A DNA stretch of 14,631 bases from a virus (IMGVR_UViG_2671180727_000007:1-14631), one strand, 5' to 3'. Numbered from the stretch's first letter, positions 2,053 through 14,610 are shown. The notes: generated by a model from the sequence alone, not told the origin. Translations and numbers: made by a program.

Positions 2053-2484
2053 GTGAACACTGATATTTTTTCTAAAATCATGGCCGATCTGGAGTTCGAC
2101 CGCGACAACCTTGAGGAAGTATGGCGTAAACAGCCACGGCTTTTAATGGAGTATGGGTCAAAACTAGCGCAGGCAGATCGAGATGTCGCAGAGGCAAAAC
2201 TTAACCTTGAAGCTGTTGAAGCAAAGCTATACGACACAGAGCGTAAGAACTTGAGTATGAACGGCATTAAGTTCAACGAGTCTGTACTGGACGCTAAGGT
2301 TAAAACAAACCCACAGTATCTGTCTAAACGGCAGAAGTTGGATGAAGCACGGCACATCGCAGACATATACAAACATGCTGTCGCCGCCTTTTCGCATCGC
2401 CGAGACATGATCGTTCAGGCGTCAAAGATGGCCATCGTTGAATTAGAGCGATTAGGCTCTGAACGCTTTATTACTCCCCGTTGA
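2053..2484 (+). CDS. Hypothetical coiled-coil protein (143 aa), possibly a UvsY-like recombination mediator
   Basis: GTG start at 2053 with AGGAA 9 nt upstream (an internal ATG at 2080 has no SD). Size, predicted helical character and position next to gp32-like and UvsX-like genes; sequence resemblance to T4 UvsY is loose and from memory only. Confidence 0.5.
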   Translation: MNTDIFSKIMADLEFDRDNLEEVWRKQPRLLMEYGSKLAQADRDVAEAKLNLEAVEAKLYDTERKNLSMNGIKFNESVLDAKVKTNPQYLSKRQKLDEARHIADIYKHAVAAFSHRRDMIVQASKMAIVELERLGSERFITPR

Positions 2485-2601
2485 TTTTTGATAGATAATA
2501 AGTAAGTACTGATCTATCATTTAACAGCTCGAAAGAGCCACGAATGAACGAAAGCCCAACGCGCATAGCGCCATCGGCCAAATCACAACAAGGAGAAACA
2601 C

Positions 2602-3630
2602 ATGTCTAAGACATTACTTGATTTGCTTAACAAAACTCGTGAAGACATTGCCGCCAAACGTGGCAACAACGTTGATCTGACTCGCTTAAAAGACGGCGTC
2701 AACTATATCCGCATCTTCCCGAATAAAGACGACCCAAACGGTAAGTTCTTCCAGACTTTCGGTATGCACTACGTTAAGTATCAGAACGAGGAAGGTAAAG
2801 AAGCAACCAACGCTTATATTTGTGAGCAACATACTCACGGTCGCGCTTGTCAGCTATGCGAAATGGTTATGGAAGGTCGCGCTCGTCACAAGGGTAACAA
2901 AGCAATGGAAGAACGCATCGGTCAAATGCGTGCCACTCCTCGCTACCTGGTCAACGGCATTCTTTCTGCTCGTGAGGATTTCGCAGATGCTGAGAAATGC
3001 CAGTTAATCGAGCTGCCGTCTACTGTATTCGATGATATCTGCAAAGCAATCACCGAAGACATCGCTGATGATATCGGCAATCCACTGAGCAAAGAGGAAG
3101 GCTACGCATTCCTGATTAAACGTACTGGCTCTGGTCGCGATACCAAATATGACGTCTCGCCTAAGCGTAAAGTCTACAAAGGCGATATCGAAGATAAATT
3201 CTGGAACACCCAGCATGATCTGATCGCATACGCAAATCAGGCTGATGAAACTCGTCTTCTGTCGACAGTTCGCACTATGGGTCGTCTGATTGGCATCGCT
3301 GCACCAACTGCCGCAGCATCTGCACCAGCAATTTCCTCAACCGCGAAAACATCGGCTGCGGCACTACCTGGATTTGGCTCTGTCACTGGTCATACGGAGG
3401 GTGCGACTGCTGTAGCAACCGCTCACACCCCAGCTTCTGAACCAACCAGTCTGGTTGATGAAGAAATCCTCCGTGCCGTTGAAACTGAATTTAAACCAGA
3501 AGCAAGTTCCGCTGCCGTTGCCGTATCAGTCAAAGAGTCTGAAGCAGTCGCAGCGACATCTGTAGCAACCGCATCTGCGACGGAAGATGAAGGTCTGGAT
3601 GACCTACTGAGAGAGCTGGACTCTCTGTAA
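2602..3630 (+). CDS. gp32-like single-stranded DNA-binding protein with zinc-binding motif and acidic C-terminal tail
   Basis: GGAG SD 7 nt upstream of ATG. Cys74-X8-Cys83-X2-Cys86 with nearby His residues (CEQHTHGRACQLC) resembles the T4 gp32 Zn subdomain; C-terminus TEDEGLDDLLRELDSL is acidic as in SSBs; residues ~231-330 are Ala/Ser/Thr-rich low complexity. Confidence 0.7.
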   Translation: MSKTLLDLLNKTREDIAAKRGNNVDLTRLKDGVNYIRIFPNKDDPNGKFFQTFGMHYVKYQNEEGKEATNAYICEQHTHGRACQLCEMVMEGRARHKGNKAMEERIGQMRATPRYLVNGILSAREDFADAEKCQLIELPSTVFDDICKAITEDIADDIGNPLSKEEGYAFLIKRTGSGRDTKYDVSPKRKVYKGDIEDKFWNTQHDLIAYANQADETRLLSTVRTMGRLIGIAAPTAAASAPAISSTAKTSAAALPGFGSVTGHTEGATAVATAHTPASEPTSLVDEEILRAVETEFKPEASSAAVAVSVKESEAVAATSVATASATEDEGLDDLLRELDSL

Positions 3631-12989: not shown

Positions 12990-13222
12990 AGCAAAGTCGT
13001 TATGGGAGCTTTCGAGACTTTGCCATCACGATGAAAAGACTTGAACGAGGCCAGACGGTGATGTTTCACAAGCCCTACCCGCCACAAGGAAATCCCGTAG
13101 CGTTTTATCTTGGAAGGTTAACAAGAAAAGGCGTATTGAGGCGCAGATCCTTCCCGGCGCATACGGAGTTCAGATTGAAAGAAGGCCAAAAGCTAACACG
13201 CGGTATCAGAGGTGTTATATGA
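12986..13222 (+). CDS. Small, highly basic hypothetical protein (78 aa) coupled between the sbcD-like and sbcC-like genes
   Basis: GTG at 12986 overlaps the sbcD stop (GTGA) with GGAGG 5 nt upstream; its stop overlaps the sbcC ATG (ATGA). About 18 Lys/Arg against 4 Asp/Glu. The track's 92-aa form starts inside sbcD. Confidence 0.5.
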   Translation: MKQSRYGSFRDFAITMKRLERGQTVMFHKPYPPQGNPVAFYLGRLTRKGVLRRRSFPAHTEFRLKEGQKLTRGIRGVI

Positions 13223-14610
13223 AGTTTTTAAAGCTCCAGGTTGAGAATTTTATGGCTATCGCCAGCGCGGAGGTCGAGTTAGATCAGCGTGGTTTAGTGC
13301 TTATTCAGGGTGTTAATAGTGATGATAGTTCCGCATCAAGTAATGGCTCTGGAAAGTCAACTCTAATGAATAGCCTGATGTGGTGTCTTTATGGCGAAAC
13401 AGCTCATGGTGTGAAGGGTGACGATGTGTTGTCTACCGACCATGAAAAGAACTGTCGTGTTGCAGTAACCATCGAGGATGAAGGCAAGAGATACGCAATC
13501 ATTCGTCACCGTAAACACAAAGAGTTCAAAAATCGTCTTATCGTTCGTGGTGAAGATGGCGATATGACGAAAGGCAAAGATGCGCTGACGCAGGAGTTCG
13601 TCGAGCGTCTGATCGGTGCATCTAAAGAGGTTTTCATGGCTTCCATCTATGCGAGCCAAGAAGCTATGCCAGATTTACCTGGAATGTCCGACAAAAACCT
13701 CAAAACCATCGTAGAAGAAGCCGCTGGCGTTGACAGACTGACACGCGCCTACGCTATTGCTCGTGAGCGAGCTAATGCAGCTGCCGCACGTATGGATGTG
13801 GTTAAAACCAAATTGGAGTCGACAATCTCGACCATTGAGGCAACACAGTCAGAAATTGAGTCAGCGAAAGCCTCCTCTGAATCATGGGAGCAAGAGCGTT
13901 CTAAACGTTATGACGATGCCCTGGCTGGGCTGGCCAGTGCCGAAGTTGAGTTAACGGAAGTTGAACTTGAGATCCGCACTCTTCCCGAACAGATACGTGA
14001 TACCGAGAAGGCAATCGAAAGTGAGCGCAAAAAGTTAGCCTCAAAAGAAGAACATGACGCCAAGTTGCTCAAAGTTCGTGGTGCGATAACTGATATTCGG
14101 GCAAGCATCAAAGCTACAGAAAATAGTCAGGCTGATGCAATGAACCGCGCGCGTAATTTTAAGACCAAAGCAGAAGAGGTTGGTACTAAAGTGGGATCAC
14201 CATGCCCTACTTGTGGCAAAGCCTACTGCGAAGAAGATCTATCAACGGTGAAGGAGAGTTTCATTGAACAAGCACGTCAGGAAATTGGTCAGGCGAAGAC
14301 ACTTGCAGAGGCAATGGCTAAACACAAAACGAATCTTGAGAAAGCGTTAAGCATTGAGTCTGCCCTTGTTAAAACGACACCTGATGTAACGGCTATCATT
14401 GCCCGGATTGAAGAGCTTACGAAACAACTCTCATCTTTGCGTCATCGTGAGAAGGAGGTTGTTGCTATTGAGTCTCTTGTGACTCGTGCTCGTACTGAGG
14501 TCGATCGTATATCAAAAGAGATTAATCCGTTTATTGCTGTCACGAACGGTGCAATAGTGATCCACACCCAACGCCTGAAATCAGATCCAGGGGGTAATCT
14601 GCTCTCCTGA
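13219..14610 (+). CDS. sbcC: Rad50/SbcC-like ATPase (T4 gp46-like), N-terminal ATPase lobe + coiled coil + CxxC zinc hook; C-terminal ATPase lobe absent (truncated or interrupted)
   Basis: N-terminus MKFLKLQVENFMAI...NGSGKSTLMNSL (Walker A), long heptad-rich region, hook CPTCG about two-thirds in; no signature or Walker B motif before the stop. The last 24 codons and stop lie in the right terminal inverted repeat. Confidence 0.75.
   Translation: MKFLKLQVENFMAIASAEVELDQRGLVLIQGVNSDDSSASSNGSGKSTLMNSLMWCLYGETAHGVKGDDVLSTDHEKNCRVAVTIEDEGKRYAIIRHRKHKEFKNRLIVRGEDGDMTKGKDALTQEFVERLIGASKEVFMASIYASQEAMPDLPGMSDKNLKTIVEEAAGVDRLTRAYAIARERANAAAARMDVVKTKLESTISTIEATQSEIESAKASSESWEQERSKRYDDALAGLASAEVELTEVELEIRTLPEQIRDTEKAIESERKKLASKEEHDAKLLKVRGAITDIRASIKATENSQADAMNRARNFKTKAEEVGTKVGSPCPTCGKAYCEEDLSTVKESFIEQARQEIGQAKTLAEAMAKHKTNLEKALSIESALVKTTPDVTAIIARIEELTKQLSSLRHREKEVVAIESLVTRARTEVDRISKEINPFIAVTNGAIVIHTQRLKSDPGGNLLS

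Follow-up and report, generated by a model that had tools for sequence, protein, structure and literature searches.

The 14,631-nucleotide viral sequence IMGVR_UViG_2671180727_000007:1-14631, hereafter called the window, very probably represents the DNA-metabolism region of a siphoviral phage-plasmid of the SSU5/pHCM2/pLF82 (Cyrano) type from Escherichia or a close relative, with two replication systems: a P1/RepFIB-type replicon of RepA and iterons, and an older array of phage genes. The element type has been described before and is an ordinary one, and window positions 97-14538 belong to the known SSU5-type family. Coordinates of the features are collected in Table 1.

Across positions 97-14538 the window had 98.8% nucleotide identity with Escherichia phage Cyrano (plasmid pLF82 of the adherent-invasive E. 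coli strain LF82) and 99.8% with the E. albertii plasmid plas1 (IncFIB). Salmonella phage SSU5 was approximately 79% identical, with full synteny and an unchanged gene order from dnaE to sbcC, an order also found in Cyrano; together with pHCM2 these two phages belong to the SSU5_pHCM2 group of the SSU5 supergroup. At least 80% of the window was covered by 116 plasmids in PLSDB, where the relatives are typed as IncFIB, and more than 100 near-identical records have been deposited as plasmids, IncFIB-typed and non-mobilizable. Identity and synteny with the reference members over the 14.4 kb compared, as well as the IncFIB-type RepA replicon, place the window in the SSU5/pHCM2 type. It differs from Cyrano in having an intein-free recA, a cspG gene and two insertions of the insertion sequence (IS) IS100, one of which truncates sbcC.

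The annotation of Cyrano already names UvsY, a T4 gp32-like single-stranded-DNA-binding protein (SSB), an exonuclease, RecA, RepA, and SbcD-like and SbcC-like proteins, followed by RuvC and NrdA. The full record contains terminase, portal, capsid, tail and lysis genes, ParA/ParB and a repressor, and its further genes of DNA metabolism encode a helicase, primase, ligase, DnaE, a Pol III epsilon-like exonuclease, NrdAB, RuvC and a protein annotated as UvsW. Virions of Cyrano have been detected (quantitative PCR, electron microscopy), as have induction by ciprofloxacin and 5.5 plasmid copies per cell (PMC9928086), and the SSU5 supergroup or supercommunity has been described as a set of IncFIB phage-plasmids with recombination functions, e.g. 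RecA-like proteins, among the persistent genes (PMC7969092). The original prediction, made from the window sequence without database searches, had offered a phage-plasmid as one of two possible identities, and this is borne out by the approximately 99% identity to Cyrano/pLF82, the gene order shared with SSU5 and the published virions of Cyrano. The virion, terminase and partition genes which it proposed to look for in the rest of the replicon are present in the near-identical Cyrano (terminase, capsid, tail, ParA/ParB); the window itself ends in IS100. Phage-plasmids of the SSU5 type, which can carry resistance genes, are frequent in E. coli, Shigella, Salmonella Typhi, Klebsiella and Yersinia; once assigned to this family, the window will not be misread as a novel hybrid.

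The other identity proposed, a plasmid that has captured a phage recombination module, had the relationship the wrong way round, and so had the description of the module as embedded in the replicon: the replicon sits inside the older phage array. In two metagenomic relatives, L007 and L009, whose UvsY-like proteins are 35-37% and RecA proteins 44-54% identical to those of the window, the order DnaE - UvsY-like - gp32 - flap endonuclease (FEN) - RecA is kept. In L007 the gene immediately after RecA is a homologue (41% identical) of the one coding for 214 amino acids in the window; a small gene, SbcD and SbcC come next, and this stretch lacks a Rep gene. Relative to this arrangement window positions 5978-11003, comprising the membrane protein and SPFH genes, small open reading frames (ORFs), the iterons and repA, are an insert.

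Exchange of the replicon was also seen between closely related elements. On either side of the replicon the enterotoxigenic E. coli (ETEC) plasmid p503025_100 shares 97-99% identity with the window, with window positions 8733-10815 replaced by another Rep allele and its own iterons. The alternative RepA block (L003 13341-15132) codes for a Rep of approximately 49% identity and has its own iterons, ACCGCTGACAGCATA, at the same positions. A three-way alignment showed that the GATC-rich/DnaA-box block at 10831-10916 is kept in the window, the ETEC variant and SSU5. An IMG/VR scan with the UvsY alignment retained 80 loci, all of them close relatives, and is thus a survey of near variation, not of distant phages. 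RepA identity was at least 90% in 18 of the 62 scorable IMG/VR relatives and 48-52% in the other 44, and despite the divergence of RepA the genes on its flanks were 97-100% identical in the closest backbones, those of Escherichia type. Because distant relatives keep the module without the replicon, and because near-identical backbones carry different Rep genes and iterons, sequence comparison indicates that the replicon is an inserted, exchangeable cassette of Rep and iterons, and that the recombination and replication array is the old backbone.

The predicted RepFIB/P1-type RepA replicon with DnaA boxes was confirmed by the Rep3 domains, the iterons and the enrichment of boxes. The RepA protein is 47.5% identical to P1 RepA (residues 40-293), 100% identical to Cyrano RepA and 91% identical to SSU5 RepA, and it has the WH1/WH2 organization of Rep3 initiators. 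The iteron core CTCTATAGTGGWT occurs in three clusters (8720-9202, 10298-10425 and 10699-10805), i.e. on both sides of repA, and nearly all matches to the core in the window surround this gene. DnaA-box matches in the window numbered 11, compared with 3.2 expected, and included a perfect box, TTATCCACA, at 10535-10543, a box with one mismatch at 10582-10590 and a near-perfect box at 10908-10916. Each of the two upstream iteron clusters is followed by GATC sites and then by a DnaA box, which is the layout of the P1 oriR. The region thus resembles both P1 (oriR-repA-incA) and RepFIB of F and P307 in having a Rep3 initiator, iterons on both sides of repA and, beyond the upstream iterons, GATC sites and DnaA boxes. 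It differs from P1 in the iteron core and in the upstream origin-like unit, which is doubled in tandem, and elsewhere the element is not related to P1. The tandem duplication of the iteron/GATC/DnaA-box unit (10298-10590 and 10699-10916) is found in SSU5 as well; the ETEC variant seemingly has one unit.

All of the genes named in the original prediction, a gp32-type SSB, a FEN, a recombinase, a possible UvsY, a gp47/gp46 pair, repA and csp, are present at the predicted positions. The recombination genes (uvsY-like, gp32, FEN, recA, sbcD and sbcC) are all on the + strand and repA is on the - strand. The SSB is a member of the gp32 family, to whose profile it matches over its full length. An H56/C74/C83/C86 pattern resembling the zinc ligands of T4 gp32 forms a candidate zinc site, and the C-terminal tail is acidic. 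A phmmer search of the PDB with this protein gave no match, despite the strong Pfam score. Ordinary bacterial homologues, which would have spoken against a phage origin of the genes, were found neither for the SSB, which is not of the bacterial OB-fold SSB kind, nor for the UvsY-like protein.

The product of the gene at 2053-2484 had been suggested to be possibly UvsY. Its sequence signal was weak (Table 1), and there was no sequence match in Pfam, NCBIfam or the PDB. A profile of 14 UvsY-like sequences found nothing meaningful in the PDB, and hhalign against T4 UvsY gave no more than a weak match at the N terminus. An AlphaFold (AF2) model built on the family alignment had a pLDDT of 93.9, and the best 19 matches to it in a Foldseek search of the PDB were all chains of T4 UvsY (4zwq, 4zwt), with TM scores of 0.65-0.81 when normalised to the query and 0.73-0.93 when normalised to the target and a root-mean-square deviation down to 1.3 Å. 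The next fold had a TM score of 0.36. Sequence searches alone did not settle the identity of the protein, and it is because of these matches of the modelled structure that it is accepted as a predicted UvsY-fold mediator, which bears out the suggestion. An exhaustive profile search for the family gave 3,529 representative clusters at E values up to 1e-3. Pfam has no model that covers this large family; its UvsY model matched 4 of 54 sampled members and was the sole Pfam family matched by more than one member. In many members (P0084, P0088, P0102, P0108, P0118) the UvsY-fold domain forms the C-terminal 120 amino acids of proteins of 290-420 amino acids, the N-terminal parts of which had no Pfam match.

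The closest solved structure to the FEN was the T5 D15 5'-exonuclease (1exn, E 1.2e-14), and 5'-nuclease domains of Pol I were also among the nearest; the start codon annotated in relatives corresponds to window position 3691. The recombinase matched bacterial RecA structures in the PDB with E values of 1e-31 to 1e-35 and phage UvsX structures with 1.5e-10, 2.3e-9 and, for T4 UvsX (3io5), 1.1e-5. Its best profile models were Pfam RecA and NCBIfam recA, and its identity to E. coli RecA was 32%. The SbcD-like protein had no significant match in a PDB sequence search. Codon 64 of recA (window 5093-5095, in the P-loop GPPSAGKT) is the site of an in-frame insertion in Cyrano and in 19 of 71 related loci. 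The insert of approximately 1.26 kb measures 1263 bp in Cyrano and 1248-1266 bp at the other loci. It is annotated as LAGLIDADG/Hint in relatives, i.e. as an intein, and the site is empty in the window allele.

Both ends of the window consist of IS100 sequence. Positions 1-96 are the reverse complement of 14536-14631, and the ends (95-97 nucleotides each) were 95-100% identical to the istA-proximal termini of IS100 at thousands of loci annotated as 'IS21-like element IS100 family transposase'. The termini match those of known copies adjoining istA and are the only parts of IS100 in the window, the transposase genes lying outside it. Homology to the phage-plasmids begins at 97/98, with the left IS100 located in the final codon of dnaE of the phage-plasmid. 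The exact junctions were found neither in GTDB representative genomes nor in complete E. coli genomes or PLSDB. A simple circle closed by one IS100 was rejected, since both ends show the same IS terminus. The inverted ends are consistent with a short-read contig which stops in repeats.

The two systems would serve different modes of replication. In lysogeny RepA, together with the iterons, DnaA boxes and GATC stretches, would maintain the prophage as a low-copy plasmid. The older array runs DnaE - UvsY-like - gp32-type SSB - FEN - RecA-type recombinase - ... - SbcD - SbcC and continues in relatives with a RuvC-like resolvase and NrdAB. After induction gp32 would coat single-stranded DNA, and the UvsY-like protein would load the RecA-type recombinase on the coated strand. 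Strand invasion by processed ends could then prime or restart replication by a phage replisome based on Pol III alpha, leading to concatemers, while FEN would remove primers and flaps, SbcCD would trim ends and hairpins, and RuvC would resolve branches ahead of packaging. By analogy with T4, it is plausible that lytic replication depends on recombination. The recombination genes CYRAN_52-55 and 65-66 are missing from the list of Cyrano genes with above-background expression in the lysogen (PMC9928086), which lends weak support to a lytic role.

Several observations weigh against this picture. As predicted, no virion or integrase gene is present in window 1-14631, both flanks of which end in IS100, and the virion genes are known from Cyrano. 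IS100 cuts sbcC after codon 440 of 638, as judged by the intact homologue of 638 amino acids. The truncated SbcC keeps Walker A and the CxxC hook and has lost the signature motif, Walker B and the H-loop, i.e. the C-terminal half of the ATPase. The reading frame is native up to 14538, and its last 72 nucleotides to the stop at 14610 are IS100 sequence; the end of the ORF at 14610 is therefore an IS artefact. The predicted gp47/gp46 pair is thus present as SbcD and SbcC, but the gp46/Rad50 homologue is broken, and an intact nuclease of the gp46/gp47 class is found in relatives and not here, where SbcD is intact and SbcC cut. ETEC relatives have an independent IS100 approximately 98 nucleotides further into sbcC and have lost the downstream DNA up to a methylase gene. 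Because sbcC of these plasmids is also disrupted by IS100, plasmid maintenance, at least, does not require SbcCD. The recombinase, judged by its similarities, is a RecA-type protein of a phage lineage within the RecA superfamily and not an orthologue of UvsX. The recombination-dependent step is proposed from the analogy with T4, and the replisome is not T4-like. The literature searched contained no experiment on replication or recombination of SSU5-type elements.

The likeness to the T4 set (gp32, UvsY, UvsX, gp46/47, RNase H and UvsW) lies in the gp32 family, the UvsY fold, a recombinase of the RecA superfamily and nucleases of the Mre11/Rad50 and FEN classes. In contrast to T4, the recombinase is far nearer to bacterial RecA than to UvsX, the FEN resembles T5 D15 and Pol I more closely than T4 RNase H, the polymerase of the relatives is DnaE/Pol III alpha whereas that of T4 is of family B, and the element that carries the genes is a temperate siphovirus whose prophage is a plasmid. 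Of the predicted T4-like character, the gp32 family and the UvsY fold stood, and the recombinase, the FEN and the DnaE/Pol III-based replisome of the relatives did not agree with it. 'T4-like' describes the logic of the set (SSB, mediator, recombinase, Mre11/Rad50 and FEN), not orthology throughout.

It is barely credible that an ordinary IncFIB plasmid, and not a virus, captured the recombination module and uses its genes for plasmid repair or stability. The complete plasmid replicon, the lack of virion and integrase genes in the window and the deposition of more than 100 near-identical records as non-mobilizable IncFIB plasmids would agree with such a capture, but genes for terminase, portal, capsid, tail and lysis are found on the same molecules, Cyrano virions have been observed, and SSU5, which has this gene order too, was itself obtained as an infectious phage. 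Moreover, it is the recombination module that is conserved and the replicon that varies, and this explanation is already largely refuted. A mainly lysogenic function of the SSB, mediator, recombinase and nuclease set, in repair or restart of plasmid replication, in multimer resolution or in protection against RecBCD or other defences, is improbable. Recombination functions benefit low-copy plasmids, and the genes adjoin the replicon and a candidate defence or toxin-antitoxin pair. However, the same array occurs without an adjoining replicon in distant phage contigs, its genes are not listed as expressed in the Cyrano lysogen (PMC9928086), and no RecBCD inhibitor of the Gam or Abc type was found among the window ORFs scanned.

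A stronger competitor, although still rather unlikely, concerns this copy of the element, which could be a degraded or rearranged remnant: a 14.4-kb piece between two inverted IS100 copies, resembling a composite transposon or resulting from IS-mediated inversion or deletion, that replicates as a plasmid and is no longer a functional phage. The inverted termini at both ends, one in the last codon of dnaE and one truncating sbcC, would fit a remnant, as would the absence of both junctions from complete E. coli genomes, PLSDB plasmids and GTDB representative genomes, and the loss of DNA down to the methylase gene in those ETEC relatives whose sbcC contains IS100. An otherwise intact element of approximately 108 kb that had received two IS copies independently would, however, look identical, short-read assembly yields contigs ending in IS repeats, and elements of the SSU5 group which differ solely by gain or loss of IS have been reported (bioRxiv 10.1101/2025.09.12.675607).

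The assignment to an SSU5-type phage-plasmid with two replication systems could be extended to a more general proposal, which is put forward tentatively and is somewhat more likely wrong than right. The genes DnaE - UvsY-like - gp32 - FEN - RecA-type - SbcCD may form a self-contained, Pol III-based and recombination-primed lytic system which is widespread in uncultured tailed phages (approximately 3,500 UvsY-like clusters) and in which a UvsY-fold mediator loads a RecA-type and not a UvsX-type recombinase. The SSU5-type replicon would be a swappable cassette of Rep and iteron specificity, plugging into a shared GATC-rich/DnaA-box unwinding element (10831-10916). The exchangeable replicon cassette, the RecA-type partner of gp32 and UvsY, and the tolerance of the module to IS100 in sbcC may have modest uses in typing or engineering, and these points leave the current picture of phage-plasmids unchanged.

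Table 1 Features of the window, with positions counted from its first nucleotide
Feature	Position	Strand	Evidence
IS100 (IS21 family), left copy, istA-proximal terminus pointing away from the window	1-97	-	abuts last codon of dnaE
cspG-like cold-shock gene (coding sequence 405-620) with cspA-type thermoregulator 5' leader	380-798	-	Rfam RF01766 185.7 bits, E 5.6e-50; Pfam CSD E 1.4e-33
Toxin-antitoxin-like pair, candidate defence pair	950-1513 and 1574-1798	-	PADLOC PDC-M06B E 1.3e-32, PDC-M06A E 1.2e-19
Predicted UvsY-fold recombination mediator homologue, 143 amino acids	2053-2484	+	structure model; phrog_231 E 1.9e-4; synteny with gp32/RecA in distant relatives
gp32-family single-stranded-DNA-binding protein	2602-3630	+	Pfam PF08804 E 1.7e-66, full-length profile match; phrog_1192 E 1e-115
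Flap endonuclease / 5'-3' exonuclease	3640-4635	+	Pfam 5_3_exonuc_N E 9.5e-25, 5_3_exonuc E 6.8e-12
Small conserved ORF in the FEN-RecA interval, function unassigned	4629-4901	+	phrog_2207 E 5e-54; kept in 80 related loci
RecA-family recombinase, intein-free allele	4904-5977	+	Pfam RecA E 2.2e-42; PHROG 'UvsX-like recombinase'
Small membrane protein	6070-6270	+	phrog_1130 'membrane protein'
SPFH/Band-7 lipoprotein	6274-7104	+	Pfam Band_7 E 2.6e-30
Five small conserved ORFs: DUF7238, 7677-7952, 7992-8171, 8168-8503, 8503-8715	7196-8715	+	Pfam DUF7238 E 5e-38; PHROG unknown-function families
Iteron array 3' of repA (incA-like), ~12 copies in both orientations	8720-9202	.	repeat families D2-D6; core-motif scan
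RepA initiator, Rep3 family, P1/RepFIB type	9205-10260	-	Pfam Rep3_N E 1.3e-10, Rep3_C E 1.3e-4 (WH1+WH2)
repA-proximal origin-like unit: ~6 iterons with 21-bp spacing (10298-10425), then GATC sites and DnaA boxes	10298-10590	.	repeat/box scans
Second origin-like unit: 5 iterons (10699-10805), six GATC in 55 bp (10845-10899), DnaA-box-like site (10908-10916)	10699-10916	.	repeat/box scans
Conserved protein of 214 amino acids, 'ASCH domain' in Cyrano annotation	11004-11648	+	phrog_2105; no Pfam match
SbcD/Mre11-like metallophosphoesterase (gp47 analogue), intact	11904-12989	+	Pfam Metallophos E 8e-10; phrog_100 'SbcD-like' E 3e-93
SbcC/Rad50-like ATPase (gp46 analogue), truncated	13219-14538	+	Pfam AAA_23; phrog_77; NCBIfam Rad50 models
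IS100, second copy, left terminus, inverted relative to the first	14537-14631	+	IS100 terminus match

The window also contains accessory genes. The host-like csp gene of the original prediction was recovered with a full cspA thermoregulator leader, beyond which an Rfam scan of the window found no RNA gene; cspG is annotated in some relatives only and is not among the Cyrano features annotated here. The toxin-antitoxin-like pair is annotated as HicB/HicA in Cyrano, where it is expressed in lysogeny (PMC9928086); no Pfam match supported these names for the pair in the window. The genes at 6070-7104 are accessory and are missing from several relatives. In the metagenomic relatives, the DnaE homologues (L007 2087-5431 and L009 2549-5914) have Pfam matches to domains of Pol III alpha and also to one of uracil-DNA glycosylase (UDG), suggesting a polymerase-UDG fusion.

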